39,480 nt of DNA from an uncultured Bacteriovoracaceae bacterium (lineage in GTDB: Bacteria; Bdellovibrionota; Bacteriovoracia; Bacteriovoracales; Bacteriovoracaceae): contig CAJXHA010000001.1 of assembly GCA_913053615.1 (NCBI GenBank), forward strand, positions 1-39,480, read 5' to 3'. Positions 3,828-39,480 of the stretch are shown piece after piece (position 1 is the stretch's first letter; every line of letters begins with the position of its first letter). The notes beneath the pieces were generated by a model that saw nothing but the letters and a program-made list of their open reading frames with translations, searched no databases and had not been told where the DNA came from. The position numbers and the translations under genes are program-made.

Positions 3828-5000
3828 TTATTTCAAACTTAAAAAAGATATTCGACTAAATAAAATAAGACTAAGAAAAAATGCCATAATAAAGCTAAAG
3901 TATTGAAACTCTTGATTATCTCGATATGCACATGATGACTCAATATCACTGGTAAAATCAGCACCTGAATTTCCAGAGGATCTCGCAGGATCGAGAATAC
4001 CTGCAGGAGTCGTCCCTAATTGCTCACTTCCACCATCTAAATTAGGAGCTGTGAAATTAAATGAGCCAGTTAGGGCACCATCGGCATCATCAATAGCTAC
4101 AATACCATCACTTCCTCTTCCCCCAGCAACTGAGTTTGTATCACCATTTGTTGTCTCTCCACCATTTATATTAACACTCGCTCCAGCCCCTACAGTCACA
4201 TTACCTGCACTTACTATATAGATAGCACCTCCACTGCCTCCTCCACCGTCTCCACCATAAGCGGCACCACTTGCGGAAATTGCACCTTCAGTTCCTGGTG
4301 CACCGACAGCATTTATTTGAGAACTTGCACCAAAACTAATATCACCTTTAGAAATTATTGCGATTGAACCGGAGCCAGCTCCACCTATACCAGCTGCACC
4401 AACAGAGTTCGCCGTTACAGAGTCCGCATCTCCAGATCCACCAGCACCGCCGCCACGACCACCAACTAATGATGTTTCCAAACTAGCAGCACTCACAAAG
4501 GCCAAGCCCTGACTCCCAAGAGCACCATCACTTGCACCAGAACCTCCTGCTCCAGCAGCACCTACCACTCCAGCAAAAGCAAAGCCGGCACCGCCGCCAC
4601 CTCCACCATAGCCATCGCCAAAACCACCACCGTCTCCAGCACCTCCACCTTGGCCATCACCATTAGCAGCACCAGTACTAGGTTGATTATTACAAGTACT
4701 GGCCCCACAATTTGCCCCCAAGCTTCCACCTGGACCAGCACTAGTGCTTCCACCAGCACTAACTGTAAGAGTACCATCGATAGTCGTTGTTCCTTTTACT
4801 CGAAATTGAATTGGAGAGCTTTGTCCAATAAAGGTTAGCACTACTCCTGCATCAACAGTAAGATCTTCACAATTCCAGACAGTTTTAGAAGTAAAAGTTT
4901 GATTTGATGTAAAACTACAATCACCATCACTTGCATCACCATAACTTAAATAAGCGCTCGCAAGCTGAGAGAATAAGAGAAAAAGAGCTAGTAGTTTCAT
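3828..5000 (-). CDS. Secreted glycine-rich (GGxG / AGxG low-complexity, beta-helix-like) protein with C-terminal hydrophobic anchor
   Basis: Signal peptide MKLLALFLLFSQLASA. There are long Gly/Ala/Ser-rich runs. The C-terminus, FQYFSFIMAFFLSLILFSRISFLSLK, is a single TM-like helix followed by basic residues. I recognised no family. Confidence 0.6.
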   Translation of the reverse strand: MKLLALFLLFSQLASAYLSYGDASDGDCSFTSNQTFTSKTVWNCEDLTVDAGVVLTFIGQSSPIQFRVKGTTTIDGTLTVSAGGSTSAGPGGSLGANCGASTCNNQPSTGAANGDGQGGGAGDGGGFGDGYGGGGGGAGFAFAGVVGAAGAGGSGASDGALGSQGLAFVSAASLETSLVGGRGGGAGGSGDADSVTANSVGAAGIGGAGSGSIAIISKGDISFGASSQINAVGAPGTEGAISASGAAYGGDGGGGSGGAIYIVSAGNVTVGAGASVNINGGETTNGDTNSVAGGRGSDGIVAIDDADGALTGSFNFTAPNLDGGSEQLGTTPAGILDPARSSGNSGADFTSDIESSCAYRDNQEFQYFSFIMAFFLSLILFSRISFLSLK

Positions 5001-19151: not shown

Positions 19152-19811
19152 TTATTCTAAACTTAAGGTAGAGAGTTTCTTCTGATCTTGATCTTTTAAG
19201 ATAAGAGCTCCCCCCTCAACTTCTAAACTCTTTGCTTCAAGAGAAATATCCACAGACTGCACTAAATCTAAAAACTGCTTATCTTCTCTCGCCTTCACAC
19301 TGGCCAGGCGGCTATAAACTAATAATTTATTAGTTGTATTATTTAAAATATAAAGTGAATCACCTATAACGGCGACATCATTCGCTCCCACTAATTCATC
19401 TTTTTCAAGAATTCTTATAGGAGCCACATTACCTGGCACTTCACTTAAAAATACTAATAGCCTTGAGCTCTTTGTATCAATAACATAAAGCTCTTTATGG
19501 GCATGATCATAAAAAACAGCACCAACATCTTCTAATAAAGTATTTGAACCCGCAGTTAAATAACGAGCATCTGCTTTTTTATCATAGGTTAAAAGTGCAT
19601 TTTGAAAGCCTGTATACTCACGATCAATGGTCTCATCTGAATAAGAGTCCTTAGCATTTGAAGCCGAATTACTACTTATAAGTTCTTTACATTGAGAACT
19701 TACTTGATCAAAACCACTACCATCACCTAGTTTAGAAAATGCAAATTTACAATCAGCTAGATTTTGAGCATATAAATTAAATGAGAGTAATAATAAAATT
19801 ATAGCTTTCAT
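19152..19811 (-). CDS. Secreted protein with NHL/propeller-like strands, translationally coupled to the giant IPT/TIG gene
   Basis: Signal peptide MKAIILLLLSFNLYA. ELYVIDTKSSRLLVF and SLYILNNTTNKLLVY are blade-like strands. Its ATG overlaps the upstream TAA by 1 nt (TAATG at 19809-19813). Confidence 0.55.
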   Translation of the reverse strand: MKAIILLLLSFNLYAQNLADCKFAFSKLGDGSGFDQVSSQCKELISSNSASNAKDSYSDETIDREYTGFQNALLTYDKKADARYLTAGSNTLLEDVGAVFYDHAHKELYVIDTKSSRLLVFLSEVPGNVAPIRILEKDELVGANDVAVIGDSLYILNNTTNKLLVYSRLASVKAREDKQFLDLVQSVDISLEAKSLEVEGGALILKDQDQKKLSTLSLE

Positions 19812-22800
19812 TATTTCGTTCCTTGTATGGTTCGTTGGGTGGTTCCCCCATCACTGGCCGTGGCCTCTAAAGTCGCACTATAACTACCAGTGCTTAAAAA
19901 TTGTGCCATAAATGTTACATCTACCGTACAGGTTGCCCCTGAAGATAGTGATGTCCCAGAACAATTATCACTTGTCACTGAAAATTCCGTCGAACCAGTT
20001 GAGACAGCTATATCTGCTGTGGTTGCAGTAGGCCCAGTATTTTCAAGTGTAAATGTAGCACTCACGTTAGTACTTTGAGTTCCATAATCATAAGTCGCTG
20101 TACTTTGCCATGTTAGGTTTGCCCCATTTGCATATGTAAATGAGCTACCAAGAGTAGCAGTTTGAAAGTATTGCACAACATTCACATCATAAGTTCCCGC
20201 TGAACTTGCACCAAGAGTACAAGAAAATTGAGTAGGACTTATATGTGAAATTCCAGTACAGGCAACACCACCAATATTCATACTGTATTGGCCAGAATCA
20301 AAATTAGTCCCTGTAACTGTCACAACTGTTCCACCTGCAGTTGAACCTGTTGCTGGTGAAATATTTGTAACTGTTGGCGAGTCTGTAAATAAGAAGCCAT
20401 TTGTAAGGGTATCTGTACTTAAATCAGGATTTGTTACCACAACATCCTCAAAGGCCTCAACCCCATTATTAGCAGTGTCACAAACGATAGTGGTTGGAAC
20501 ACCTGAATAATCATAATTTGTACAAGCTCCACCAATTGCAACCGTAGCACCACTTACAAAGTTTGAACCTGTGATAGTCACAGTTGTCCCACCAGCTGTA
20601 TCCCCACCTTGAGGACTAATGCTAGTAATGCTTGGACTTGCACCAACATAGGTATAACCATTGGTAGCAGTAACTGTTAGACCACTTTGATTCGTAATAA
20701 TAACATCGACAGCACCTGGTGCACCACCAGCAGGTGTTAAACAACTTATAGAAGTAGAGTTAGTTCTGACTAAAGAAGTACATGGGTTACCATCAATTGT
20801 TACACTCACCCCAGTTGCAAAATTACTACCAGAGATCGTTATGGCCTCACCACCAACAACACTACCTTGATCATCAGAACCATCAGTAAGTGAAGTAAAT
20901 GTTGGTGTATCTTCATATTCAAAACCATTACTTAATGTACCTGTTATTCCATTACCATTTGTAACAACCACATCCCCTATAGTATCAGCACCAACTGAAC
21001 CAGTAGTACAAGTAACACTAGTAGAGTTTTGAGCTGTGATTGAACAAGCAGTACCCGCTAGAGTAACTGAGCTTACGGCAGCAAAATCACTACCACTAAT
21101 AACCACTGATTTCCCACCTGCAATAGCATCATGGTCATCACTAATTGATGTCACTGTTGGTGGCGGTGATACGATTACATTATTAGTATCATCATCTACT
21201 TGGCCATCAGGGTTTGTCACAACTAAGTCATATGTTCCAGCTGAAGCACTCGCTGTGACACAAGTTAAAGAAGTTGCACTATTAAATGTGGTAGTCGCAC
21301 AATTCACTCCAACTTCTACGGTTGCACCACTAACAAAATTACTACCTGTGATATTGATAGTATCTCCACCACCAGTTTGCACCACACTTACATCAATTGA
21401 AGTAACATGTGGACGAGCAATATATTGTAAGAAGGCAGAGCTATCTGAGCCTTGTTGTGTATCTGGACTAATAACAATAACTTCTACCATACGAGTCGTA
21501 TCAGTAGTAGCACTTGGAGCCGTGGTACAAGTTAGACTCGTATCGCTGGCAACACTAACACTAGTACATGCTTCACCATCAACAGTGACTGTTGGATCAG
21601 TACCGTAATTTTGAAAACCAGTACCTGTAATGGTTAAAGTTGTGGCCAAACTTTCTGGAGCAGTGCTTGGAGTAACATTTGTTACTGTCGGAGCATCAAT
21701 GATTTTATAAATACCAGTAAGTGTATCAGTTCTTCCATCTCCATTGGTAACTGTAATATCATAATCACCTGGAGTCTGTGGTCCTGCAGCTACTGTACAA
21801 GTGACACTACTTCCATCACCGGCAACTGCTGTTACAGTACAACCTATTCCACCAATATCAACAGTGACAACACCACCACCTAAAGTTGAATCTCTTAAAC
21901 CAGAACCAGAAATAGTAATACTATTGGCTCCCGCTGCAGGTCCACCAATTGGTGAAACACTTGTAATGTCTACAGCTGGATGATAAGTGAAACTTGCATA
22001 AGCATTTGAAACTTGTCCATCCGGATTCGTTACTGTAACTGTACTAGTACTACTTCCAGCACTTGATGTACATGTTAATGAAGTTGTCGTTGGTACAGAA
22101 ATCACAGTACAAGGACTTCCTGCTAGATCAACGGTATGACTAGTATCACCAGAGATAAAGTTAGTTCCGGTAATCGTAATTGTTTGTGAACCATCACTAC
22201 GTCCACCATCTGCATCAGTTGGTGAATCAACTGCAGTCACCGTTGGAGCTGGTAGATAGTCGATAGTTGTACTACCTGTTTGACCACTTTCATTTGTAAC
22301 TAATAAGGTAACCCCTGTACCAGTTCCGGCAGGAGTAGTACAAGTAATAGAAGTTGGACTTGAGTTGCTTGTAATAGTACATGGATTACTATCGATGGTA
22401 ACAGTTGCATTATCATATAAATCGGTACCAGTTATAACAAGAGTCTGTGAGCCGACTTCATAAATTGTGGTTGGGTTTGTGCTTGAAATCGCAGGATCTG
22501 CCACATAAGCAAATGCTCCACTATCAGTTACGGTTTGAGCATCATCATTAGTGACCACCACATCATAAGTACCTATTCCTGCACCACCATCGGCCGGAAC
22601 CACACAATCAATATCTGTAGTTGAATTCACTGTTGAACTTGTACAGGCCACTCCATTAATACTAACAGTGGCACTAGCTTGAAAACCAGTCCCTTGTACA
22701 TTGATAGTATTTCCACCGGCAACTGGGCCATATGCATAATCATAACCTGTAATAGTTGGAGCGGCGACATATCTTAATTGGGCCGTATCACTTTGCCCAT

Positions 22801-25800
22801 CAGCATTTGTATAGGTCACAGTAATAGGATCTCCTGTTCCTGCTGGAGTGGTACAGGTATAACTTGTTGGTTCTGTATCACTTACATAAGTACATGGATC
22901 AGTTCCTATTGTAACAGTTGCATCAGATCGAAGATCTGTACCGGTGATAATAATATTTTCCCCACCTGCCTCTGCTATATTTTCATTACTATAAAGAGCT
23001 ATTGGATTTGGAACTGTAATGCTACTAATTGATGGAGCTCCAATATAATCAAATGATCCAACACTACCTGTTGTTTGAAGATCGCCAGAATTTACAATTT
23101 CAATATTTAATCCAGTTGCCAAGGCATGGGCAGGAGTAACACAGGTTAAGGTATTTGCATCTACAAATGTCGTTGAACTACAGGCCGTACCATCAATTCG
23201 TACTTCCATATTTGCACCGGTGAAATTAGCTCCGGAAATAGTAACCGTGCTTCCACCTAAAGGATCACTATAATCAGGTGAGACACTAGCAAAAGTAGGC
23301 GCAGGTCTAAAAATAAAGGCACTTGATGAGGTACTGGTTTGTCCATCTTGATTTGTCAGCACCACATCTTGTAATGAATAACTACCAGCAGGAATATAAC
23401 AATCAAAGGTATTATTATCTACAAACTGTGAGTCAGTAACACCCACACCTTCCGCAGCACAAGTCGCATCACCAACAGTGACACTCATTCCGGTTTGAAA
23501 GTCAGTTCCAATTAAGCGAATCTTATATCCACCATTATCATTTCCACCATCAATAATTGTGGTTCCTGTTTCTTCATATATATTTGTCAGAGTTGGAGGT
23601 CCGATAAAGTCAAAGAAAGCTGCACTATCACCAAACTGTCCACTCACTGTATTAGTTACTCGAACAACATAATCTTCTCCTGAGCTATGAGCAGGTGTAT
23701 CACAAGTAATTGTCGTGGCATTTACACGATTTACATTAGTACAAGTATCTCCATCAATAGTTACACTCACACCTGAACTATGAAAATTAGCACCAGTAAT
23801 AGTAATACTCGTTCCACCAGCAATATCAGAAGAAGTCGGTGTTGTTGCTGGAGATGTAACAGTTAAGTCGGGATCGAGTACAAATTCATATGAGCTTGCT
23901 AATTGATCTGTTTGTCCATCTTCATTTGTAACATCAACATTGAGTAAAGCTGACGCTGAACCATAATTAGGAGTAGTACACCTTACTTCATTTTCAGAAA
24001 CATAAGTTGTAACTGAACAAGTTTGTCCATCTATATCAATACTTACATTTGGCATTAGATAACTACCATAAACAGAAATTTCTTGTCCCCCACCTGTCGG
24101 TCCAATAAATGGATAGATTGATGAGATAACAGGAGCTGGTCTATAGGTATAAGCACTGGCCAATGTAAAAGCTTGGCCATCTGGATTAGTCACGCGAACA
24201 TTTGATAATGTTGCCGCACCAACAGCTGGAGCAACACAGTCTACTCTTGTAGCAGTTAAGTTGCTTAAGCTACCACAAGTTTGGAATGTTCCATTTTCAT
24301 CAGATAACTCAACAGTTAAGCCCGTTTGAAAATTAGTTCCTTGAACTTGAATCGTATTTCCACCGGCCACTGGGCCATAATCAATAAATGGCAGTACAGG
24401 AGTGGTAACAATTGTTACAGTAGGTGCTGGATTATAAATATAGGCCCCAACTCCTACTCCTGCTTGATTATCGTCTGTATTAGTAACGGTAACATTATAA
24501 GTACCAGCGGTATTGGCCGGAACATCACAATCAAAACTAGTGCTTGTTACATTTGTTATATTAGTACAGTTTGCGGCTCCAAATAAAACAGTGAAATTTC
24601 CAGCAGAATCAAAACCTGTACCTGTTACACTAACTGTTCCCCCACCACTTTCTGGTCCATTTCCAGGAGTGACACTGGTAATTGTAGGAGCCGGTCTATA
24701 AGTAAAGGCATTAGTTAAAGTTGCTTGTTGACCATCAAAGTTTGTAACAACCACATCGCCTGTTTGAGCAGTTTGAACATCTGTTACACAAGTTATCGTA
24801 TTTCTATCCACAACAGTTGCAGTTGCACAACTAACACCTGCCATAGTGACATCAAATGAACCGCCACTATCAAACCAATCACCAGTGATAGTAATGGTAT
24901 CACCACCGTTTATTGAGCCATAAGCTTGATCAATACTTGTAAGTGTTACTGCTGGAACATACTCGATAGTATCTGAATCAGTACCTCCATCTGCATTACT
25001 TACAACCACTGTCACATCACTACCAAAGGCACCATAACGACTAGTACCAGTTCCACTAGTACTCCAATATGGAATAGTGGTACATGTAATAACTGTTCCT
25101 GTATTCGTAGCGACGGGACAATCAAAGCCACCAATTTCAACGGTTCCACTGGTGGTAGAGCCATCAAAGTTTGTTCCATTAATTGTAAGTGTTTGTCCTC
25201 CAGCTTCCTCTAAGGTTGTTGGAGAAAAACTTGTAATCGTCGGAGGATCAACATAATCATAGCCACTCACAAGAGTACCTGTTTGCGAGTCAACATTAGT
25301 CACTGTAATAGTATATGAACCTGCAGTATTAGCACCTGTGGTACACGTTGCGGTAGTAGAGCTCACGGTAACCACACTAGTACAAGCACTTCCACCAATA
25401 TCAATTGAAGAAATTTGATAAAAACCAGTTCCTGTTAGGGTGATGGATTCGCTACCGGCCACACTCCCTACTGCTGGAGTAACAGAGCTAATTGTAGGTG
25501 CCGCTAAATAGCGATAACCATTACTAAAGGTAAAGCTTTCACCTTTAGAATTATTTATTGTAATGTTTTTTGAACCAGCACTTGCACTACTTAAAGTACA
25601 AGTAAGAATGGAGCTACTAAGGGTTGCGATAGTACACGTTCCATCACCAAGACTAACACTTGTGACTAAGTCTAGATTTGATCCATTAAGAGTAAGGGTT
25701 CCCCCTCCACTAGTTGATCCATATGCGGGACTTACAGAAGTAATGGTTGATGTGGATGCGATTTTTTCTTGGCGAAGTCTTTCTTCTAAATTTTCAACAG

Positions 25801-25897
25801 CCTCACCACAAGCACTGAGGACAATAAAAGTGAATAGCATTAAAAAATGCTGTAAAAGCTTTCTAAAAACGTGAACAATTTCAAGTTGTTTTAGCAT
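19811..25897 (-). CDS. Giant surface lipoprotein: about two dozen tandem IPT/TIG Ig-like domains plus a C-terminal ASH / choice-of-anchor-D-like domain
   Basis: Lipobox LMLFTFIVLSAC. An ~80-aa unit recurs (P-x-I-T/S-S-h-x-P-x-x-G-x-x-x-G-G-x-x-h-T-h-x-G-x-x-F ... C-T ... h-x-C-x-T-P ... V-x-V-T-N-x-D-G-Q). The last ~120 aa (TFTLENTGPTATT...FSVTSDNCSGTSLSSGATCTVDVTF) look like the HYDIN/ASH-type fold. Confidence 0.85.
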   Translation of the reverse strand: MLKQLEIVHVFRKLLQHFLMLFTFIVLSACGEAVENLEERLRQEKIASTSTITSVSPAYGSTSGGGTLTLNGSNLDLVTSVSLGDGTCTIATLSSSILTCTLSSASAGSKNITINNSKGESFTFSNGYRYLAAPTISSVTPAVGSVAGSESITLTGTGFYQISSIDIGGSACTSVVTVSSTTATCTTGANTAGSYTITVTNVDSQTGTLVSGYDYVDPPTITSFSPTTLEEAGGQTLTINGTNFDGSTTSGTVEIGGFDCPVATNTGTVITCTTIPYWSTSGTGTSRYGAFGSDVTVVVSNADGGTDSDTIEYVPAVTLTSIDQAYGSINGGDTITITGDWFDSGGSFDVTMAGVSCATATVVDRNTITCVTDVQTAQTGDVVVTNFDGQQATLTNAFTYRPAPTITSVTPGNGPESGGGTVSVTGTGFDSAGNFTVLFGAANCTNITNVTSTSFDCDVPANTAGTYNVTVTNTDDNQAGVGVGAYIYNPAPTVTIVTTPVLPFIDYGPVAGGNTIQVQGTNFQTGLTVELSDENGTFQTCGSLSNLTATRVDCVAPAVGAATLSNVRVTNPDGQAFTLASAYTYRPAPVISSIYPFIGPTGGGQEISVYGSYLMPNVSIDIDGQTCSVTTYVSENEVRCTTPNYGSASALLNVDVTNEDGQTDQLASSYEFVLDPDLTVTSPATTPTSSDIAGGTSITITGANFHSSGVSVTIDGDTCTNVNRVNATTITCDTPAHSSGEDYVVRVTNTVSGQFGDSAAFFDFIGPPTLTNIYEETGTTIIDGGNDNGGYKIRLIGTDFQTGMSVTVGDATCAAEGVGVTDSQFVDNNTFDCYIPAGSYSLQDVVLTNQDGQTSTSSSAFIFRPAPTFASVSPDYSDPLGGSTVTISGANFTGANMEVRIDGTACSSTTFVDANTLTCVTPAHALATGLNIEIVNSGDLQTTGSVGSFDYIGAPSISSITVPNPIALYSNENIAEAGGENIIITGTDLRSDATVTIGTDPCTYVSDTEPTSYTCTTPAGTGDPITVTYTNADGQSDTAQLRYVAAPTITGYDYAYGPVAGGNTINVQGTGFQASATVSINGVACTSSTVNSTTDIDCVVPADGGAGIGTYDVVVTNDDAQTVTDSGAFAYVADPAISSTNPTTIYEVGSQTLVITGTDLYDNATVTIDSNPCTITSNSSPTSITCTTPAGTGTGVTLLVTNESGQTGSTTIDYLPAPTVTAVDSPTDADGGRSDGSQTITITGTNFISGDTSHTVDLAGSPCTVISVPTTTSLTCTSSAGSSTSTVTVTNPDGQVSNAYASFTYHPAVDITSVSPIGGPAAGANSITISGSGLRDSTLGGGVVTVDIGGIGCTVTAVAGDGSSVTCTVAAGPQTPGDYDITVTNGDGRTDTLTGIYKIIDAPTVTNVTPSTAPESLATTLTITGTGFQNYGTDPTVTVDGEACTSVSVASDTSLTCTTAPSATTDTTRMVEVIVISPDTQQGSDSSAFLQYIARPHVTSIDVSVVQTGGGDTINITGSNFVSGATVEVGVNCATTTFNSATSLTCVTASASAGTYDLVVTNPDGQVDDDTNNVIVSPPPTVTSISDDHDAIAGGKSVVISGSDFAAVSSVTLAGTACSITAQNSTSVTCTTGSVGADTIGDVVVTNGNGITGTLSNGFEYEDTPTFTSLTDGSDDQGSVVGGEAITISGSNFATGVSVTIDGNPCTSLVRTNSTSISCLTPAGGAPGAVDVIITNQSGLTVTATNGYTYVGASPSITSISPQGGDTAGGTTVTITGSNFVSGATVAIGGACTNYDYSGVPTTIVCDTANNGVEAFEDVVVTNPDLSTDTLTNGFLFTDSPTVTNISPATGSTAGGTVVTVTGTNFDSGQYSMNIGGVACTGISHISPTQFSCTLGASSAGTYDVNVVQYFQTATLGSSFTYANGANLTWQSTATYDYGTQSTNVSATFTLENTGPTATTADIAVSTGSTEFSVTSDNCSGTSLSSGATCTVDVTFMAQFLSTGSYSATLEATASDGGTTQRTIQGTK
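20175..25750 (-). repeat. Tandem array of IPT/TIG domain-coding units (~240-bp period, diverged)
   Basis: The periodicity is seen in the translation. DNA copies are diverged and I saw no long identical blocks. Confidence 0.7.
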
Positions 25898-28067: not shown

Positions 28068-29900
28068 TTATTTTCTTTCAATACAGAATTTTTCAAAAGT
28101 TTTTAATGGTGCATCTGTTTGCCCATCATATGAATGTCCACCAAGAATACCTAAGCAATCTTCAAAACCAACAACTTGTGAAAAGCCTTTGTATTCATTT
28201 AAAAAGCGACCTGTATGAGTCCACTTCATTTCATTAAAATTAAATTGATAAATATGGGGAACGTACTCATAGTCCCATTGACCAGTTTTAAACATCCCAC
28301 CAAACATTAGTCCATAATCACTTAAGCGCCCTGCCGCAGGAGCAAAAGTGCCAAATGGAAGCTTTGGAAGTTCTTTAAAGTTGCCTATAAGAGGATCAAA
28401 TTGGGTAAAGTCATCAGATAAAGAAAAGTGACTTCCACCTTCTGAAATTCCACCTAATAAATAAATTAAACCATTGCGTACAAAGGCACTAAATGCACGA
28501 CGCTTTTTTGGAAGTTTAGCTCTAAGAGTAAGCCATTGATGAGTTCTTAAATCAAAGCGATCAATTTGATCATGAAAGGTTCCATCGATATCATCATCAA
28601 AGCGTGGAGTTGAATCCCAGCCACCAATTAAATAAACATAATGGTCAATTTGTACCGCTACATTAGAAGAGCGCTTACGAGGCATTAAATTCACATACTC
28701 CCACTTATCTTGCGCTATATTATAGCGTTCAACTAGGTTTAGTGACTTCCATTTTGGAAGATTATTTTCTTCATATGCAAAGCCACCAAATGCATAAATA
28801 TATCCATTATAAGCGGCCAATTGAAAGCCATGGGCCTTTGATGGTCTTGGAGCAGCTTTTTTCCAACGATTTAAATTAATATCATAAATATTTACTTCCC
28901 CAGAAAAACTCTCAGGTGGATATGTATGTTCAGCACCTTTATGGCCTCCAACAACATAGATTTTCCCTTCATACTCAATAGCACCAAATGAAGAGCGAGC
29001 ATCTCCTATCATTCGATCTAATAAGTTATTTGAAAATTGAGTTTGACCAGAAGTTTGAGGTGCATAAAAACTTTTATCACTGGACTGTAAGACTTCTATT
29101 CCCTCAATTTGTGTATTGGTTAGATTTTCTTTCTTCTTTAGATAAAGGCCAAATGTACCTTCATTGACCTGATCATTAGTGTATAAAAGATCACCAGCAT
29201 TATTAAAGTGAGGAGAAAAGTCTCTCGCAGCATTACTGGTTACTCTTTGAATCGTTTTATTAAAGCGATCATAAATAAAGATATCCCAATTATCATTTTC
29301 TAAGGCGGTAAAAGCGATAAGCTTTTCATCCTTAGAGAGACTTGGTGACATGCCCTTTGCAATAACTTCTTTTTTATCTGCCTTCACATCATAGAGAACA
29401 ATCTCACGGACTTTGCCATTATTTCTTTGATAAATTAATCGCTCTGCATTTTGAAATGCCTTTGGAAAAAATGCTGGCATCTCTTCATTAATATAATGAA
29501 TTTCACGAGATCCATTTAAATCCATATAGGCAATTTTCTGAGTAGTATTCACTTTGATTGAAAAATAAATGCGCTTGCCGGCCTTTGCAAAACTAGGATG
29601 AACAACAAAGCCTGGATCAGTAAGTCTTTCGATACGACCTGTTCTTAGGTCGTGCAAATATAGACTTAAACTATTTGCATCATCACCTTTAGCATAGACC
29701 ACACGATTTCCATCTGGACTAATATTTGGGTAAAGATGCCATTGATCACCATATGTAATCAATTTATAATCACCATCTTCTGTCATCAGTGCAATATGTT
29801 TAGACTTCTCATCTTCTACCATGAAAACACTTAGTGATTTGGCCAATACATTTTGAGTGAAAATGACCCCGACAAGGGCCGTAAAAAACAAATATTTCAT
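28068..29900 (-). CDS. Secreted TolB-like (PD40/WD40-like) propeller fused to a Kelch-repeat propeller
   Basis: The N-terminal half has PD40-type strands (YPNISPDGNRVVYA, MSPSLSKDEKLIAF, FSPHFNNAGDLLYT). The C-terminal half has Kelch GG motifs (KIYVVGGH, YIYAFGGF, YVYLIGGW, LIYLLGGI, LMFGGM). Confidence 0.7.
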   Translation of the reverse strand: MKYLFFTALVGVIFTQNVLAKSLSVFMVEDEKSKHIALMTEDGDYKLITYGDQWHLYPNISPDGNRVVYAKGDDANSLSLYLHDLRTGRIERLTDPGFVVHPSFAKAGKRIYFSIKVNTTQKIAYMDLNGSREIHYINEEMPAFFPKAFQNAERLIYQRNNGKVREIVLYDVKADKKEVIAKGMSPSLSKDEKLIAFTALENDNWDIFIYDRFNKTIQRVTSNAARDFSPHFNNAGDLLYTNDQVNEGTFGLYLKKKENLTNTQIEGIEVLQSSDKSFYAPQTSGQTQFSNNLLDRMIGDARSSFGAIEYEGKIYVVGGHKGAEHTYPPESFSGEVNIYDINLNRWKKAAPRPSKAHGFQLAAYNGYIYAFGGFAYEENNLPKWKSLNLVERYNIAQDKWEYVNLMPRKRSSNVAVQIDHYVYLIGGWDSTPRFDDDIDGTFHDQIDRFDLRTHQWLTLRAKLPKKRRAFSAFVRNGLIYLLGGISEGGSHFSLSDDFTQFDPLIGNFKELPKLPFGTFAPAAGRLSDYGLMFGGMFKTGQWDYEYVPHIYQFNFNEMKWTHTGRFLNEYKGFSQVVGFEDCLGILGGHSYDGQTDAPLKTFEKFCIERK

Positions 29901-29960
29901 AATCTTATCCTATTTTGCAGATAAGCTTATGAGTGGGTGTTTGATATGTCAAACTAACCC

Positions 29961-31127
29961 TTAGTTTTCGGCTTCATCCTCACTAGGAAAGAGGCTTTGC
30001 TCGCATTCTTCTAAATAGATATCATTGATTTTCTTTAATTGACGTTCTTTATGCAGGGCAATGTTTATAGGTTCGTAATCCCCATCTGTAATATTATTTT
30101 TACCATATACTTTCATATACCAAATACCGTCTTTATACTTAATTTTGGAATATGATTTCTTAGACCATTTTTCTTCATAGGCCGGATGCTGATAATTTGA
30201 ATCTTGCACCTTAAATTCATACTCCACTGTACCATCTTCATTAGTAATTTTCTCAGCATCAAAAACCACTTGAGCATGCGCCATCACACCTGGGTATTGA
30301 AGAGTGATATAACCAATTTCATCGCGATCATTTACTGACTCAAAGAGATCTACGACCTCTTCATTTTGATGCCTTAATGTTTTTTCACGTTTTCTTTGCT
30401 CTTCTTCTTCTGAGTCATAAGTTCTGCGCTCAAACTTTCTTTGCGCTCTTGCATTTATTTTCTCATCCCCATGATCTTTAAATGGATCAATAATCCATCC
30501 CATTTGTTTGGTATAAAATTCAGGTGACTTCTTAGTATAGGTATCAGGAATGCTTAGGCCATTTACCCATTGCATTTTTAGAAAGCTATCTTCTGCCATC
30601 CATTTTTGTAAACGTTTTTGCACTAGCTTTTCTATCTCTGGGTCTTCTGTAAATTCTTTTAATGAAGCATAGCCTGGAATTTCAACCATCCCTTTTCTCT
30701 TGGCAATACTCTTAATTAATTGTTTTAACTCTCTTCTATCTTCTTTCTTATTAGGGTCTAGTTTTGGTTTCTCAGGATTAAATGCCGCCAGGTAAGTTGC
30801 ATTACGATGAAATTGTGAATGCCACCAACAAACACCTGTAGGTAGTCCAAAAAGTCCTTTATTATTAGAAAAACCCATACGTCCTTTCTTGGTACATAAC
30901 ATTGCTTGAAAGTCTCTTGGAGTACGAGCACAAAGCTCAGCTTTTGATTTTGCTGGTTCAATATTTACGGCACAAGGATCAAATTCCCTATTCTCTAAAT
31001 TATTAATTAACCCACTAGATTCCACTGGCACTTCAGGCATATGTTCTGTTGAAGCTGGATCACAGGAAACATTCATTGCAAATGCACTGGATGTAAAAAT
31101 AAATAAGAAGAATAAAACCTGTTTCAT
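29961..31127 (-). CDS. Secreted protein, unknown; possible papain-fold Cys/His/Asp hydrolase
   Basis: I placed the start at ATG 31127 (MKQVLFFLFIFTSSAFA), after AGGGG. The ORF-track TTG at 31142 has no SD. GVCWWHSQF, MAHAQVVFD and VQDSNY occur in the order expected of a Cys-His-Asp/Asn triad. The assignment is weak. Confidence 0.5.
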   Translation of the reverse strand: MKQVLFFLFIFTSSAFAMNVSCDPASTEHMPEVPVESSGLINNLENREFDPCAVNIEPAKSKAELCARTPRDFQAMLCTKKGRMGFSNNKGLFGLPTGVCWWHSQFHRNATYLAAFNPEKPKLDPNKKEDRRELKQLIKSIAKRKGMVEIPGYASLKEFTEDPEIEKLVQKRLQKWMAEDSFLKMQWVNGLSIPDTYTKKSPEFYTKQMGWIIDPFKDHGDEKINARAQRKFERRTYDSEEEEQRKREKTLRHQNEEVVDLFESVNDRDEIGYITLQYPGVMAHAQVVFDAEKITNEDGTVEYEFKVQDSNYQHPAYEEKWSKKSYSKIKYKDGIWYMKVYGKNNITDGDYEPINIALHKERQLKKINDIYLEECEQSLFPSEDEAEN

Positions 31128-31270
31128 ATTAACCCCTAACAATAACTATTCGGCTTAAAAATATATTTGCTTTATTGCCCGACAAAAACGCTCCGGAGAA
31201 GCATTAAATTTTATAATATTTAAATGCAATTTTAGTTTTATAAAGAAGGCTTTGAGCTTATGATTACTAA

Positions 31271-32809
31271 ATGTTCTTAGGTGTTAATACGCAACATTTT
31301 ATGCCTCATGGCCATTGTATTATGTGGACGCCACAAATACTTTTTCCCATTGTCATTTCTGATATTATAATCTTTCTAAGTTATACATCGATCCCTGTCG
31401 CACTTTATATTTTTCAATCTAAGAGAAGCGATCTTACAGATAATTCAAGACTAGTATTAATACTCTTCTTTCTTTTTATATTTCTATGTGGGATCACTCA
31501 TGCCATTTCAGCTTGGAATTATTGGCATGCAAATTATGTGCTGGATATGTTTGTAAAAGTTCTTACCGCACTAGTTAGTATGGCCACCGCCATAAAATTA
31601 TTTCAGCTCTTACCAACCTTGATAAAACTCCCTTCAATAACTGAGTACGATAAAGTTATTAAAGAGCTTAAAAAAGTAAATGATGAACTTGAAAGAAGAG
31701 TTGAAAAAAGAACCCAAGAGATTCAAGAAAAAAACAAACTTCTAAGTACTGTCTTAAATGGTATTAGTGAAGGGATTGTACAGTACTACCCTATTTATAA
31801 TGAAAATGATGAGGTCATTGATTTTAGAAATAAGGCCTTAAATCAAAATGCTTTTAAAGAATCAGAGTATAAAGAGATTGATCAACTTGAATCAGACTCT
31901 GTCAAATCTTTTCCGGGTATAGTTGAAAATGGACACTTTGATCGCTGTTTAAAAGCATGGAATGAATCAACGACAGTTATTGTCGATCCTTCTTATAATA
32001 GTTTTCATAATCGCTTCTACCGTGAAGTTGTACATAGGCCAGCAAATGAAAATTATCTTGTGGTCTATTTCACAGATGTAACAGATAGAGAGGAAATGAA
32101 AATAAATAAGCTCACTCAAACCAAGCTTCTTGCTCTTGGTGAATTAGCTGGTGGGATTGCTCATGAAATCAACACACCTCTACAAGTACTTAGTGGCTAT
32201 TCTCGTAAAGTAGAGAGAAGCCTATCAGAAGAACTTAAAACACAAAACCAAGAAAACTTTAAAGTTATCAATGAGACTTTAAAATTTATTAATCAATTAA
32301 TTAAAAACCTCAAAAGTCTCTCCCGTGGTAATGCTAGTACCGTGGTCGAAATAAATATCTCTGAATTCTTTGAAAAGAGTTTATTCTTTCTTGAACAACG
32401 TTTGAGCAATAATAATATCCAACTCATTAAAAACTACTCCCATAACGAAATTAAAAGTATAAATTTTAATGAAGTTTCTCTTTTTCAAATTACCACCAAC
32501 CTTTTAAAAAACGCCATGGATTCAGTCATTGAAAAACATGAAACAGATAAAGAGCATAAAAGTATAATAGAAATCAATCTTATTAAAAATGACCATGAAG
32601 TTATTATCGAGATTGCAGATAATGGCATTGGTATTGATGATAAAATTATTCATAAAATCTTTGATCCCCTTTTTACAACTAAAGGTGAAAATAAAGGAAC
32701 AGGTCTTGGACTTTCACTTAGTCAAAAGCTTGCAATGGATATGGGGGCAAGATTAAGAGTGATACAAGATGATATGACACGCTTTCAATTGGTGGTAGGA
32801 AATGAGTAA
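31271..32809 (+). CDS. Sensor histidine kinase with ETR1-type (ethylene-receptor-like) N-terminal transmembrane domain
   Basis: H-box GGIAHEINTPL, N-box NLLKNAMDS, G1 DNGIGI, G2 GTGLGLSLS. The N-terminal 3-TM domain reads HGHCIMW...ISD...SYTSIP...FIFLCGITHAISAW...KVLTALVSMATA...LPS (nt 31301-31636). The start could also be Met11 (31301). Confidence 0.85.
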   Translation: MFLGVNTQHFMPHGHCIMWTPQILFPIVISDIIIFLSYTSIPVALYIFQSKRSDLTDNSRLVLILFFLFIFLCGITHAISAWNYWHANYVLDMFVKVLTALVSMATAIKLFQLLPTLIKLPSITEYDKVIKELKKVNDELERRVEKRTQEIQEKNKLLSTVLNGISEGIVQYYPIYNENDEVIDFRNKALNQNAFKESEYKEIDQLESDSVKSFPGIVENGHFDRCLKAWNESTTVIVDPSYNSFHNRFYREVVHRPANENYLVVYFTDVTDREEMKINKLTQTKLLALGELAGGIAHEINTPLQVLSGYSRKVERSLSEELKTQNQENFKVINETLKFINQLIKNLKSLSRGNASTVVEINISEFFEKSLFFLEQRLSNNNIQLIKNYSHNEIKSINFNEVSLFQITTNLLKNAMDSVIEKHETDKEHKSIIEINLIKNDHEVIIEIADNGIGIDDKIIHKIFDPLFTTKGENKGTGLGLSLSQKLAMDMGARLRVIQDDMTRFQLVVGNE

Positions 32810-33164
32810 ATTTATTTTTGTTGATGATGATCCAAATATTTTAGAAGTCTATAAAGATGAGATTGAAATTGGCATCGGAGATATAGATGCTCACTTCTTT
32901 GAATCAGCTTTAGACGCTAAAGAATTTATTGAAGACAATGATGATATAAAACTTATAGTCACAGATGGTAAAATGCCAGAACTAGATGGCTATGAACTTG
33001 GTAAGTTAGCAAAAGAAAAAGATCCCAATATAAAAGTTATTATGATCTCTGGTCACTTTAATCTTGAAGATACAGAAAAAGAAGGTACTAAGGTTTTAGA
33101 TCATTTTCTTGAAAAACCAATTGATTTTGATGACTTTATTCAATTATTAAAATCAAACACTTAA
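32802..33164 (+). CDS. Stand-alone CheY-like response-regulator receiver domain
   Basis: It has an 8-nt overlap with the kinase gene. FVDDDPN acidic pocket, VTDGKMPELDG phospho-acceptor Asp, MISG and EKP Lys. There is no output domain. Confidence 0.85.
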   Translation: MSKFIFVDDDPNILEVYKDEIEIGIGDIDAHFFESALDAKEFIEDNDDIKLIVTDGKMPELDGYELGKLAKEKDPNIKVIMISGHFNLEDTEKEGTKVLDHFLEKPIDFDDFIQLLKSNT

Positions 33165-33232
33165 AGACCATATAGCTTCTAAATATCTTCTCTTTAATAA
33201 CCGATAAGTCATATAGGTTAAGGGGAGCCTAT

Positions 33233-34480
33233 TTGAAACTTTTACTTTTATCTATCATTATTTCCAATTATCTTTGGTCATTTGCATGTCCTAATATTCG
33301 TTTAGATAAGAACTTTCCCAATAATACTCCTCGCAATAAGGCCAAATACAAAACAATGAACTCAATAGGAGTAAAAAACCAAAAACTTGGAATTTGTTAT
33401 GCCTACACGGCCACTCAAATGATCGATGCCATTCGCTCAAAAAGACTTTATGAAAGAGGAATAACTCCTAATAATAGCAATCTAATTGAAAGCTCCCCTA
33501 TCTTTACAGCTGTTACCACAGAGAGTGCATGGGGTGATGAAGAGCTAACTTATAAGAAAAATGGAGATCCCCGCTACCCTTTTGAGGGGGGAGATCTCTG
33601 TGAGGCCTTCAATTCTACTAAGGAATTAAAAGCATGCCCTCGTAACCAAATGGAAAGACTTATTCATAACTCAGGTCTCAATGAAGAATCATTTTTTAAA
33701 AGACTCTTAGAAATTGAAGAAGAAATGAGAGATAAAAGAGCACAAGTCTTTTTAAAATACTCAACTCAACCAGCCCCCTTTGCAACCAGTACAAATGTAG
33801 TTAATTTTTTTGAGAATTCTTCTAATGCCACCACTGAATTAAAAGCATGTAAGAATAATGCTATTCATGAAACCTATGATAGCTTAAAAGATATTTTTAA
33901 AAGCAACTTTACAATTACCCGAGAGATGTTTGCTAAGTATTTTGATCCTGAACTTTTTAGTGATCCCTTTCAAATAAAATCAATTCTAAAAAATGTTTGT
34001 GATGCTCGTATAACAGTTAATACCAAGAGTACTTGTAAATCAATGACAGGTAGAGATGCCAATAGAATAAAAGATACCAAATACCCTTTTACCAGAAAGA
34101 TTCTAGAAGAGTTAGCATCTGACTCAGTTCCAGTCGGTATTTCATACTGTGGCTATATGCTCTATGGTGATAAGAATTTTGATGGAATCAAATCACGCTC
34201 ACCTTTAAGATTTCAAAAATCTCAAGGTAGAGAGTGTGGTGCTCACTCATCTTTAATTATTGGAAGCCGTTGGAATACGAAAACTAATAGTTGCGATCTC
34301 TTAGTAAGAAATACCTGGGGAACGGGCTGTAGTAAACAACACTACCCCTCTAAGAGTACATTACAAAAGAAAAACCCAGGAAAATCTATTAGTCAGTATG
34401 ATGTAAAATGTGAAGGTGGAAATTACTGGATTGATTATAGGACGCTAGAAAAAAATATCTATCGGGTACAGCACTTATGA
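33233..34480 (+). CDS. Secreted papain-family (C1-like) cysteine peptidase
   Basis: TTG start after AAGGGGAG. Signal peptide. NQKLGICYAYTA (Gln oxyanion plus Cys nucleophile), CGAHSSLIIG (His) and VRNTWGTGC (Asn-x-Trp-Gly) occur in canonical order. Confidence 0.7.
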   Translation: MKLLLLSIIISNYLWSFACPNIRLDKNFPNNTPRNKAKYKTMNSIGVKNQKLGICYAYTATQMIDAIRSKRLYERGITPNNSNLIESSPIFTAVTTESAWGDEELTYKKNGDPRYPFEGGDLCEAFNSTKELKACPRNQMERLIHNSGLNEESFFKRLLEIEEEMRDKRAQVFLKYSTQPAPFATSTNVVNFFENSSNATTELKACKNNAIHETYDSLKDIFKSNFTITREMFAKYFDPELFSDPFQIKSILKNVCDARITVNTKSTCKSMTGRDANRIKDTKYPFTRKILEELASDSVPVGISYCGYMLYGDKNFDGIKSRSPLRFQKSQGRECGAHSSLIIGSRWNTKTNSCDLLVRNTWGTGCSKQHYPSKSTLQKKNPGKSISQYDVKCEGGNYWIDYRTLEKNIYRVQHL

Positions 34481-34830
34481 AAAACTTTATGCTCATGACC
34501 TTACTATTTTCAAGTTCTCTCTTTGCCTTTGAACCAAAGCTTAAAGAAGTACAATTAAAAAAATTCAGTGCCGCTATTTCAGAAAATTGCCAAGGTGATT
34601 GTATGGCCTTAAGCTCAATTAAAGAATTGGATGCTAAAAAACTTGCAAGTATCAAAGACAAACTTTTTGGAGGTAGACAGCCTGGTCTTATGCTCTGCCT
34701 TTATGCTTTTAAAGCTAGCTTTAAAACATTTAAAGACCAAGAAGGCAATGAACAAACCTATTGTTACTTTAAAGATCAAAGCTATATTTCAACTGCTGAA
34801 TATGATAAGGCCATTAGCTACTTTGATTAA
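34477..34830 (+). CDS. Small secreted protein overlapping the peptidase gene (ATGA)
   Basis: Signal peptide MKNFMLMTLLFSSSLFA and 4 Cys. The GNEQTYCYFKDQSYIS segment faintly recalls DUF333-type small proteins. The function is unknown. Confidence 0.5.
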   Translation: MKNFMLMTLLFSSSLFAFEPKLKEVQLKKFSAAISENCQGDCMALSSIKELDAKKLASIKDKLFGGRQPGLMLCLYAFKASFKTFKDQEGNEQTYCYFKDQSYISTAEYDKAISYFD

Positions 34831-35582
34831 TAGAAATAAACTAAACTTAAATCAAGCTCCGTTCGCTTAGTTGAAAAGTCACTATAATCAATAATCTCCT
34901 GAGCGAGGCTTGTTCTTAAATCCCATCTCTCATGAAAAGAATAAATAAGCCCTAGACCATACTTAATAATATCACCTTCAACCTTAATATCGTCTTCTTC
35001 TTCACCTGAAATATCTTCTAGAACTTGATCAAAGAATGGCGAATATCCTTCATACTTTCCAGAACCAAGATTTAAACTAAGAGCCAGATTACTTGTGTAC
35101 TGATAAAGAATGTCCAGCCCTATAACATCCTCTCTGGTATTAAAAATTAATAGATCCATTTGATCACTAGAGAAATATGGCCTTAAAGATACTTTTTCAC
35201 TTAAGCGATACCAATAATCAATGCGGTATTGAGTATATAAGAAAAGAGTAGCAAAGCTTATACCTAAATTATGCTCTCTACTCCTAAGCACTCCCCACTT
35301 TACACCAAGTGGATATAACCAACTTACATTTTCATTTATCCCTTGTTCAAAACGCAATAATGGCATGGCATAATCAGTACTACTTACATCTAAACTAGAA
35401 GTCGATATATCATCCACTTCAGTTACTTGAGTATGATAACCACTTGCACCAAATTCCACACTAGCAACATCATCTGGAAGTGCGTAGGGCCTATCAATAT
35501 GGCTACGTGAATAATCTCCCTTAGGTGTACTAGAACAAGCAATAAATAAAAATAAAATAGAAACTAAGTATAAAATCTTCAT
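34827..35582 (-). CDS. Lipoprotein, probable outer-membrane beta-barrel
   Basis: I placed the start at ATG 35582 (MKILYLVSILFLFIACSS, lipobox), after AAGGA. The body has beta-strand periodicity and the C-terminus is LSLVYFY (aromatic). Confidence 0.6.
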   Translation of the reverse strand: MKILYLVSILFLFIACSSTPKGDYSRSHIDRPYALPDDVASVEFGASGYHTQVTEVDDISTSSLDVSSTDYAMPLLRFEQGINENVSWLYPLGVKWGVLRSREHNLGISFATLFLYTQYRIDYWYRLSEKVSLRPYFSSDQMDLLIFNTREDVIGLDILYQYTSNLALSLNLGSGKYEGYSPFFDQVLEDISGEEEDDIKVEGDIIKYGLGLIYSFHERWDLRTSLAQEIIDYSDFSTKRTELDLSLVYFY

Positions 35583-35695
35583 GATCAAAAATCCTTTGCA
35601 AGATTCTATCACAAAAAATGTAAATCTCTTAAAGCTTGGGTAAGAAAAAACGAAATCCCCGACTAGTTTAGTCTTTAATAATGTAGAAAAATAAT

Positions 35696-38319: not shown

Positions 38320-38397
38320 TGGAGGAGAGGATCGGATTTGAACCGACGGCTTTACAGTTTTGCAAACTGTTCCCTTGGACCACTCGGGCACCTCTCC
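38320..38397 (-). tRNA. tRNA-Cys: tRNA-Cys (anticodon GCA), CCA encoded
   Basis: The minus-strand sequence GGAGAGGTGCCCGAGTGGTCCAAGGGAACAGTTTGCAAAACTGTAAAGCCGTCGGTTCAAATCCGATCCTCTCCTCCA folds as a cloverleaf. The acceptor stem is GGAGAGG/CCTCTCC and the anticodon stem is ACAGT/ACTGT with loop TTGCAAA. The T-loop is TTCAAAT and the discriminator is U, as expected for bacterial tRNA-Cys. Confidence 0.85.
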
Positions 38398-38410
38398 CCA
38401 CTAGTAGCTT

Positions 38411-38439
38411 ATAATCAAGGATGGAGACCAATCTGTCAA
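38411..38439 (-). promoter_or_regulatory. Sigma70-type promoter for tRNA-Cys
   Basis: On the minus strand: TTGACA (38439-38434), a 17-nt spacer, then GATTAT (38416-38411). The -10 ends 13 nt before the tRNA 5' end. Confidence 0.45.
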
Positions 38440-38457
38440 TAAATTTAGTGCTTTATA

Positions 38458-38718
38458 TTACTTTCTGGCCACCCTTAGGCTTAACTTCATTGGTGATAAG
38501 GCCTTATTTATACTCTCCATACTTGGATTGCCTGTGTCATTTTCAATCTGATAAATGGTTTTTTTGGTCAGACCGACCTTTTCACCAAACTCTGTTTGGT
38601 TCATATCATAGAGTGCCCTAATTAATTTCACGGCCTCAGAGACTTTTAAATCTCCCCTCTCAACCTTGTGCATTAATTCTTCTCTCGCCTGTAATCTCTC
38701 TTCTTTGCTTCTTTTCAT
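38458..38718 (-). CDS. XRE-family helix-turn-helix protein (putative antitoxin of the upstream HipA-like kinase)
   Basis: MNQTEFGEKVGLTKKTIYQIENDTGNPSMESINKAL is a classic HTH_3 motif. ATGA overlap with the hipA-like stop (38715-38718). Confidence 0.75.
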   Translation of the reverse strand: MKRSKEERLQAREELMHKVERGDLKVSEAVKLIRALYDMNQTEFGEKVGLTKKTIYQIENDTGNPSMESINKALSPMKLSLRVARK

Positions 38719-39480
38719 AAATTCTCTTTTATAAATTCTTGTAACTTCTTAGTTAATGGATCTTTCTTTATCCAAGCTTGCGTGCGAATTTCAGGTGCTA
38801 AATTCTTAGTGCTTGCAAGGTTTTCTAGTTTTTCTAAATCACTTAGAACCATTTTAAAAATATTTTCGACTTCGCTTTTTTCAAGTTCTAAGTTTGTTAG
38901 TAAAAATTGTTTCATGTGTGCAAAATCAACAATTGAATTTTCCTCTTCTTTCCATCTAATGACTCTAATAATTCCTTCGTCATCTAAAGTCATCGGAGCA
39001 AAGTCATAGAGAGGGCTTAGTCTGAGTGAGCGATCTTCTTTTTTTATAAATGCACTATTGCGAGCATGATTATCTGTATTTCCCATAGCGATATTTAAAA
39101 AGTCGCGGCGAAGATACTCTAAACAATCAGCTCTATAATCAGTGGAATATTTTTTGATGGCCATAAGTACATCTTCAATAAAGTGCCTTTCCCCAAATTG
39201 GAAATCACCTAAAAGACTACTAAGACTCTCCATACCGTAACGTAAAGTTTCTCCATTATCTAAGTATACTCGATCAAATCTTTCCATTAAGAGCATGTCT
39301 TTATACAAGGTATATTCTTTAAATGTATTTAATCCCAGCTCAATGGCCATATCCATATAGACCTTTTCAGCTTGTAGAATTTCTCTATCCTGTTTCGCTT
39401 TTGATTTTGGTAATTTAATAATAAAGCTTTTTTGAATAAGCTCTTCTTTTAGTGCTCCATCGATTGAATAGTTTTGATCT
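38715..39480 (-). CDS. hipA: HipA-family Ser/Thr kinase toxin (5' partial, runs off the window end)
   Basis: MLLMERFDR, GNTDNHARNSAF (catalytic D-x-H-x-x-N loop) and LSPLYDFAPM (Mg-binding Asp) are HipA_C hallmarks. I translated 39357-39479 by hand and the frame stays open (…DQNYSIDGALKEELIQKSFIIKLPKSKAKQDREILQAEKVY-MDMA…). The ATG at 39356 is therefore internal. Confidence 0.8.
   Translation of the reverse strand, partial: DQNYSIDGALKEELIQKSFIIKLPKSKAKQDREILQAEKVYMDMAIELGLNTFKEYTLYKDMLLMERFDRVYLDNGETLRYGMESLSSLLGDFQFGERHFIEDVLMAIKKYSTDYRADCLEYLRRDFLNIAMGNTDNHARNSAFIKKEDRSLRLSPLYDFAPMTLDDEGIIRVIRWKEEENSIVDFAHMKQFLLTNLELEKSEVENIFKMVLSDLEKLENLASTKNLAPEIRTQAWIKKDPLTKKLQEFIKENL

Follow-up and report, generated by a model that had tools for sequence, protein, structure and literature searches.

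Does a marine bacterium of a predatory lineage carry an ethylene receptor of the kind known from plants, and do the secreted proteins encoded just behind it belong to the same system? This question is raised by four co-directional genes in the window studied here, that is, the whole 39,480-nt stretch from contig CAJXHA010000001.1 of an uncultured Bacteriovoracaceae bacterium. On the forward strand, these are a sensor histidine kinase of 512 aa (31271-32809; an open reading frame with Pfam ETR1_N, HisKA and HATPase_c and an AlphaFold model), a stand-alone receiver of 120 aa (32802-33164; Pfam Response_reg only), a predicted secreted papain-fold cysteine peptidase of 415 aa with a TTG start, here called prot3 (33233-34480), and a predicted small secreted protein of 117 aa, here called prot4 (34477-34830). 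An earlier note, made from the sequence alone, had proposed these four open reading frames as one operon in which a plant-type ethylene-binding kinase governs a peptidase, and all four are indeed found at the positions it gave. On the whole, our analysis makes it probable that the first two genes are an ethylene-sensing two-component module of the type of AzoEtr1 from Azospirillum brasilense, and that the last two are a separate, self-contained cassette.

The ethylene-binding domain

From N- to C-terminus, the kinase consists of an ethylene-binding domain (EBD), a signalling helix, a PAS-like domain, and the DHp and CA domains. The EBD, an ethylene- and Cu(I)-binding domain by homology, takes up residues 11-122 (31301-31636, forward strand) and is in register with ETR1 and AzoEtr1. 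Against the Pfam family ETR1_N (PF25487) it scores 99 bits, with a gathering cutoff of 27 (E = 1.9e-28), and the match spans kinase residues 28-120, corresponding to profile positions 7-97 of 97. Hydropathy gives three hydrophobic segments at the kinase N-terminus (about residues 16-50, 54-83 and 90-118), and the AlphaFold helices of the domain (21-51, 57-85 and 89-119) agree with it on three transmembrane (TM) helices, encoded at 31331-31423 (TM1), 31439-31525 (TM2) and 31535-31627 (TM3).

The register was examined in two alignments. The N-terminus of Arabidopsis ETR1 served as a bait only for retrieving P0175 (source name "ethylene receptor"), a Brassicaceae ETR1; this sequence shares 98% identity with the bait and is free of indels over the first 130 residues, therefore the ETR1 numbering applies to it. 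The register alignment includes the window EBD, P0175, wheat ERS1, the Marchantia and Closterium receptors, the AzoEtr1 orthologue and four close relatives. It shows that D31, Y38, I41, P42, I70, C73, H77 and K96 of the kinase correspond to ETR1 D25, Y32, I35, P36, I62, C65, H69 and K91, all in invariant columns. Altogether, 16 columns show no variation among plants, green algae and bacteria, and the intramembrane polar D, C, H and K are among them. An independent alignment with 149 sequences agrees on this register and adds W82, which corresponds to ETR1 W74. Wang et al. (2006) are said to have abolished ethylene binding in ETR1 by alanine substitution of Tyr32, Ile35, Pro36 or Ile62. The codons of the key residues on the TM1 side are at 31361-63 (D31), 31382-84 (Y38), 31391-93 (I41) and 31394-96 (P42), and those in TM2 and TM3 at 31478-80 (I70), 31487-89 (C73), 31499-501 (H77) and 31556-58 (K96). 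Within the membrane, TM2 contributes C73 and H77, separated by one helical turn, while D31 belongs to TM1 and K96 to TM3.

These results well support the proposal of the earlier note that the domain is of the ETR1 type with every key residue matched: the Pfam score and both alignments agree, and Cys73, His77 and Asp31 fall in register with ETR1 Cys65, His69 and Asp25. As the key residues are in register in formal alignments, the observation of an ETR1-type domain stands. At the level of the letters, too, its reading is accurate, for the Cys codon TGT at 31487-31489 and the His codon CAT at 31499-31501 are verified, and the motifs ISD, SYTSIP, FIFLCGITHAISAW, KVLTALVSMATA, HGHCIMW..P and LPS are all present in the kinase. 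One may still ask whether three hydrophobic helices could resemble the domain by chance or by composition, for AT-rich genomes yield membrane segments rich in Ile, Phe and Leu. No other support for this was found, while the E-value of 1.9e-28 to a curated hidden Markov model (HMM), the 16 invariant columns and the thousands of homologues with E <= 1e-30 leave it practically no probability; we regard a chance or compositional match as refuted by the HMM score, the family search and both alignments.

For the domain as known elsewhere, Cu(I) is an obligate cofactor, and the roles of Cys65/His69, Asp25 and Lys91 have been described together with a model of D25-H69-Cu and D25-K91 (PMC10266040). Seven residues are needed for ethylene binding in ETR1, and all of them are conserved in AzoEtr1 (PMC11819568). 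A PDB sequence search with the kinase matched kinase cores only and no solved ETR1 transmembrane domain, which leaves the EBD without a structural template.

Besides the residues shared with plants, the domain begins with a periplasmic motif M-P-H-G-H-C-x2-W-x-P (residues 11-21; 31301-31333, forward strand), recognised in a census of the top 147 representatives of the family. In the form [M/I]-P-H-G-H-C-x2-W-x-P, its H13, G14, C16 and W19 are kept in 147/147 and P12 in 145/147, and the P-S following TM3 is as conserved as this motif in the same representatives. Two other alignments likewise show the motif as invariant. The plant receptors are without the PHGHC motif and have Cys4/Cys6 there instead. 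HGHC and LPS had been taken for cyanobacterial hallmarks; actually, they are general to the bacterial members, AzoEtr1 included. With its His and Cys content, the motif may serve to capture Cu(I) or to link a dimer by a disulfide.

How widespread is such a domain? An exhaustive profile search with the EBD against 1.84 billion cluster representatives (clusters at 50% identity) finds 10,362 proteins at E <= 1e-3 and 4,116 at E <= 1e-30. Among the top 147 representatives, C, H, K and Y are kept in 147/147 and D in 142/147. A word-indexed homologue search with the EBD returned 7 fragments only; it is the exhaustive profile search that makes the family size visible. Putative ethylene receptors have already been reported in the literature from several bacterial phyla, and in 2025 AzoEtr1(1-130) of A. 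brasilense was reported to bind 14C-ethylene, with D35A and C75A as predicted non-binding controls (PMC11819568). The premise that, plants aside, only cyanobacteria are known to bind ethylene thus no longer holds, and the family, in addition, comprises more than 10,000 clusters. Judged from its residues, the kinase is apparently functional and typical of its family, which is very large and already curated. In this sense the locus alone leaves knowledge unchanged, the family being in Pfam already with more than 10,000 sequence clusters. Two things are new: such a gene in a not yet cultured marine host whose lineage is predatory, and its position beside a peptidase cassette that is itself uncharacterised. 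Our literature search found no paper connecting ethylene receptors with Bdellovibrio-like organisms or deltaproteobacteria.

From kinase to receiver and the possible signal

Behind the EBD, a long signalling helix or coiled coil (residues 123-164; 31637-31762, forward strand; AlphaFold pLDDT about 67-89) connects TM3 to a divergent PAS-like domain (residues 165-270; 31763-32080, forward strand) with the order beta-beta-alpha-alpha-beta-beta-beta, seen from AlphaFold, Foldseek and homologues. The earlier note had called the kinase PAS-less, which does not agree with three observations. The AlphaFold model has the canonical PAS topology at 165-270, its beta-beta-alpha-alpha-beta-beta-beta unit spanning 168-269, followed by DHp and CA; Foldseek ranks full-length PAS(LOV)-histidine kinases first, with alignments over about 380 columns, compared with about 245 for matches to the kinase core only; and Pfam PAS is called at the same place in 14 of 16 collinear homologues, where D269 at the C-terminal end of the domain is invariant. 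The kinase core (32081-32800, forward strand) consists of DHp at residues 271-352 and CA at 359-510, according to Pfam HisKA and HATPase_c and histidine kinase cores in the PDB. The phospho-acceptor of DHp is H298 (codon 32162-32164), and the CA motifs are intact, with N414, the G1 box D450-x-G-x-G, F464 and the G2 box G476-x-G-x-G.

The receiver gene begins within the end of the kinase gene, the kinase stop and the receiver start sharing 8 nt (ATGAGTAA). Its receiver residues are intact, namely D9/D10, the phospho-acceptor D55 (codon 32964-66), S83 and K105. The protein had been named a receiver-only CheY. Pfam confirms a response regulator made of the receiver domain alone, with no DNA-binding or enzymatic output domain; the name CheY is not upheld, as the protein stays below every NCBIfam equivalog cutoff, the best CheY model giving 21.7 bits against a cutoff of 200, and che genes, like flagellar, motility and copper-handling genes, are not found in the 39-kb window. 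Having no DNA-binding domain, the receiver by itself exerts no control of downstream transcription, and having no output domain it must act via protein-protein contact or as a phosphate sink.

Taken together, an AzoEtr1-type module would work as follows. C73 and H77 would hold Cu(I), with D31 positioning H77, as suggested by homology (PMC10266040, PMC11819568). The copper would then be bound by ethylene, or by a comparable small alkene in solution in seawater, and the signal would pass from the D31-K96 bridge to TM3, through the helix at 123-164 to PAS and on to the DHp/CA core, both steps being likewise drawn from homologous receptors. The ligand-free kinase would autophosphorylate H298 and pass the phosphate to D55 of the receiver, and ethylene would lower this flux, by analogy with the inverse-agonist behaviour of ETR1, SynEtr1 and AzoEtr1; for AzoEtr1, it is stated that the inverse-agonist model applies (PMC11819568). 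The receiver, if not serving as the phosphate sink, would presumably contact, e.g., a motor, a switch protein or another regulator.

A different signal may however be read by a true ETR1_N fold, such as copper availability or the redox state of Cu(I), some other unsaturated or pi-acceptor small molecule of seawater (propylene, isoprene, carbon monoxide), or an input through the PAS domain. The domain after all depends on copper as its cofactor (PMC10266040), and of its enormous family, whose range goes far past bacteria that are plant-associated or phototrophic, only a handful of members have been shown to bind ethylene; the bacterial members also carry the extra invariant, His/Cys-rich periplasmic PHGHC motif, and a PAS domain is located between sensor and kinase. 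Yet the residues at which a mutation deprives ETR1 of ethylene binding are all present, and the bacterial members with these residues that have been tested so far, SynEtr1 and AzoEtr1 (the latter with a PHGxC motif as well), bind ethylene with high affinity. We therefore assign a non-ethylene signal a rather low probability.

If the ethylene-sensing module is what the first two genes encode, what does it mean? Ethylene receptors have mostly been viewed as a matter of plants and cyanobacteria, joined in 2025 by AzoEtr1 of a plant-associated proteobacterium. The present locus would be a complete, apparently functional module of the AzoEtr1 type in an abundant uncultured marine bacterium with no plant partner, and would strengthen the case for ethylene or a related small alkene as a general environmental cue in the ocean. 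Residues 1-130 of the kinase are a compact candidate for ethylene-binding assays.

The peptidase cassette and its relation to the sensor

The receiver gene is followed, after a gap of 68 nt (33165-33232, forward strand), by prot3, whose TTG start has a strong Shine-Dalgarno sequence, AAGGGGAG, 7 nt on its 5' side. This protein finds no match in Pfam (E <= 0.1), NCBIfam or PHROGs, and its family is small, with about 19 clusters. Its AlphaFold model (pLDDT 80, pTM 0.80) is more informative: all 48 Foldseek matches with E <= 1e-3 are clan CA peptidases, among them bleomycin hydrolase, Pd_dinase, Lpg2622, cathepsin C, dionain and calpain. The papain fold is shared with bleomycin hydrolase (1gcb), Pd_dinase BDI_2249 (3pw3, 5wdk), Lpg2622 (6a0n) and cathepsin C (1jqp), with a Foldseek probability of 1.00 and E-values from 1e-6 to 1e-4; the TM-scores are low (0.3-0.4) because of a helical insert of ~160 residues (about residues 137-297) between the Cys and the His halves. 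The order Gln...Cys...His...Asn-x-Trp-Gly of C1 and clan CA peptidases is kept in prot3, where Q50 (33380-82), C55 (33395-97), H338 (34244-46) and N360 (34310-12), the last in R-N-[ST]-W-G together with W362, are invariant across 15 homologues. Searching the family profile against PDB sequences gives sub-threshold matches only (E 0.14-8), 20 of 25 of them to C1 peptidases; in local alignment, "NQ.LGiCYayA" of prot3 falls on "NQAsCGSCYSFA" of cathepsin C, and "nHasliiGS..iRNsWGtg" on "NHAVLLVGY..VKNSWGTGW". A single N-terminal hydrophobic segment (1-14), with no other in the protein, is consistent with a signal peptide and supports export.

From its predicted structure and conserved residues, then, prot3 is a very divergent, C1-like cysteine peptidase of the papain fold (clan CA), and the secreted papain-like peptidase of the earlier note is recovered by the fold matches, the invariant Gln/Cys/His/Asn set and the alignments on the cathepsin catalytic segments. 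We do not file it as a member of family C1 proper, since it matches the HMM of neither Peptidase_C1 (PF00112) nor C1_2 (PF03051). It differs from the solved C1 and clan CA peptidases in its identity of about 10-12% to them, in the helical insert, and in having an obligate partner gene for a four-Cys protein.

That partner is prot4, whose gene overlaps the prot3 gene in ATGA and which appears to be translationally coupled to it. It has a single N-terminal hydrophobic segment, consistent with a signal peptide, and four invariant cysteines (C38, C42, C74 and C96). No match was found for it in Pfam, NCBIfam, PHROGs or the PDB, and a PDB profile search was empty as well. A likeness of prot4 to DUF333 or chagasin-type inhibitors had been considered; no search supported either, and both were dropped. 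With no detectable relatives outside the cassette, prot4 could be a dedicated inhibitor or chaperone of prot3.

Homologues of prot3 with 39-47% identity are present in five other contexts (L001/L004, L002, L003, L006-L008 and L009-L010), at 8001-9484 in L001, 8001-9595 in L002, 3122-4788 in L003, 8001-9658 in L006 and 8001-9601 in L009, the coordinates being those of the cassette. In all five, a gene for 118-135 aa comes next and overlaps the prot3 homologue, and these small partners are homologous to prot4, having in common a signal peptide, the four invariant cysteines and the motif GG...NE..C.FKD.S. The genes upstream of the pair differ from one context to the next, and a kinase or receiver is not among them in any of the five. 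Conversely, the loci of other EBD kinases (L011, L021 and L022) have no such peptidase nearby. Since the pair recurs with no kinase or receiver, and these other EBD kinases occur with no peptidase, prot3-prot4 and kinase-receiver are two independent conserved units. As a small uncharacterised family, the cassette may merit study for predator biology.

The four genes have nevertheless been proposed as one operon or regulon, in which ethylene or copper, once perceived, would govern during predation how the peptidase is expressed or secreted, or how the cell moves. The packing on one strand is tight, with the 8-nt overlap, the 68-nt gap and the ATGA overlap, and a scan of the gap (33165-33232) detects no terminator-like hairpin and no convincing promoter. 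As a whole, the scan does not rise above chance: promoter-like sites number 14, with 16.4 expected by chance, and all 5 terminator-like sites lie inside coding sequence. The gene order is identical on every contig with the exact kinase, i.e. on 14 marine Tara Oceans contigs, albeit these represent one population. Read-through from the sensor genes into the cassette, and thus their co-transcription, is possible on this ground. A transcript shared with the sensor would however mean co-expression and not regulation by the sensor; besides, the prot3-prot4 pair stands with no kinase or receiver upstream in five other contexts, the EBD kinases at L011, L021 and L022 are without a peptidase neighbour, and a receiver lacking a DNA-binding domain cannot itself control transcription. 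Because of the five contexts and of the receiver, the four-gene operon with the peptidase as its output is not retained as the preferred reading; we consider it unlikely, and to the same degree unlikely that sensor and cassette are functionally coupled. On the far side of the cassette, a convergent gene of 261 aa (34827-35612, reverse strand) overlaps the end of prot4 by 4 nt, so that a terminator would not fit behind the cassette; the encoded protein has a lipoprotein-like N-terminus (…FIACSS), a terminal aromatic residue like that of outer-membrane beta-barrels, and no Pfam match.

The reading of two units, an ethylene-sensing module and a separate cassette, remains the one we prefer, and a number of points weigh against it. 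The same strand and a 68-nt gap with no terminator mean that the gene order would permit one transcript, and the relatives of the cassette that show no kinase linkage are distant, with <=47% identity. On the side of the sensor, ethylene is named as the ligand from residue conservation alone; a Pfam scan of the kinase linker alone makes no PAS call, with only a faint PAS_7 (E 0.16); the AlphaFold model of the kinase is moderately confident (pLDDT 74.5, pTM 0.44); and the PAS domain, undetected by Pfam, could be a second and dominant input.

As to the organism, relatives of prot3 in named genomes come from a metagenome-assembled genome of Bacteriovoracaceae (Tara sample ERR594325) and one of Halobacteriovoraceae, of the lineage Bdellovibrionota, Bacteriovoracia, Bacteriovoracales, and the apparently predatory bacterium of the earlier note is in accordance with this predatory lineage. 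The window is AT-rich (about 34% GC) and rich in secreted or surface proteins. Ethylene occurs in natural waters, produced by dissolved-organic-matter photochemistry and by organisms (PMC6682694), so that the ligand is plausibly available to a marine host. It can then be imagined that a free-living marine predator of the Bacteriovoracales uses dissolved ethylene, released from sunlit organic matter, algae or cyanobacteria, as a cue for productive, prey-rich water that tunes motility or attack via the receiver, the sensor having been placed, in this lineage, before a lineage-specific peptidase cassette and being co-expressed with it. This would bring gas sensing into bacterial predation if true, and we hold it to be quite improbable, more so than any reading above except the chance match.

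Several other genes of the window were seen in passing. Divergent from the kinase and upstream of it are two genes (28068-31142, reverse strand), one for a 610-aa PD40 and Kelch beta-propeller with a signal-like N-terminus, the other for a secreted-looking protein of 393 aa with no Pfam domain; the pair adjoins the kinase on other contigs of the same population too. A protein of 2,028 aa (19811-25897, reverse strand) contains about 19 IPT/TIG repeats (Pfam TIG, 715 bits) and is presumably a giant surface or adhesin-like protein. At 3828-5000 (reverse strand), a 390-aa protein rich in Gly, Ala and Ser has a signal-like N-terminus, a hydrophobic C-terminal tail and no Pfam domain, and its gene has a GC content of 0.48 versus about 0.34 in the rest of the window. 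Finally, at 38320-39356, a tRNA-Cys (38320-38397, reverse strand) lies beside an open reading frame of 213 aa that matches the HipA C-terminal domain only and could be a truncated toxin-kinase gene.

Comparison with known ethylene receptors

Compared with the EBD of Arabidopsis ETR1 and ERS1, the window domain has the same three TM helices and about 35% identity over the domain, with D25, Y32, I35, P36, I62, C65, H69, W74 and K91 all matched. It differs from them in having PHGHC and no Cys4/Cys6 pair, and in an insertion of 2 residues in the TM1-TM2 loop; beyond the EBD, the window kinase has PAS in place of GAF and no fused receiver. It is expected to use canonical phosphotransfer, whereas the plant receptors mainly act through CTR1. 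SynEtr1 (slr1212/UirS) of Synechocystis PCC 6803 is, by description, likewise an EBD-histidine kinase with phosphotransfer to a response regulator, and ethylene is thought to inhibit the kinase. Unlike the window kinase, and again by description, it is larger and is a bifunctional sensor of light and ethylene, and its regulator is a transcription factor.

Among marine sequences, a metagenome scan for close relatives of the kinase gave only one informative locus, L011 (1216-5895 of a marine contig), where the EBD leads straight into a hybrid histidine kinase that ends in a receiver domain. This kinase has 508 aa and is 43% identical in the EBD, and two more histidine kinases and a stand-alone receiver follow it, which shows the EBD as a part of multi-kinase networks in AT-rich marine bacteria similar to this one.

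The closest parallel is AzoEtr1/AzoRR(etr1) of A. brasilense Sp7, represented in our data by P0154, a protein of 525 aa with D35, C75, H79 and K98. Its locus (L021) contains aspartate-semialdehyde dehydrogenase, RF3, the EBD-PAS-histidine kinase and a stand-alone receiver overlapping by 8 nt, and as this numbering and neighbourhood match the published Azoetr1 locus (PMC11819568), P0154 is taken as the AzoEtr1 orthologue. By BLASTP the window kinase is collinear with it over residues 10-495 (27% identity, E 1e-58), and the two receivers are 31% identical. The systems differ in that identity is 27% overall and 39% in the EBD, that the window PAS is too divergent for Pfam, that the host is a marine, AT-rich, Bacteriovoracales-like bacterium and not a plant-associated alphaproteobacterium, and that a peptidase cassette lies downstream here. 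Their likeness concerns the whole design: both kinases have the EBD, PAS, HisKA and HATPase_c in 512 and 525 aa respectively, an H-box of the AHE-x-x-x-PL type and an N-terminal PHGxC motif, and both are followed by a receiver gene that overlaps the kinase stop by 8 nt.

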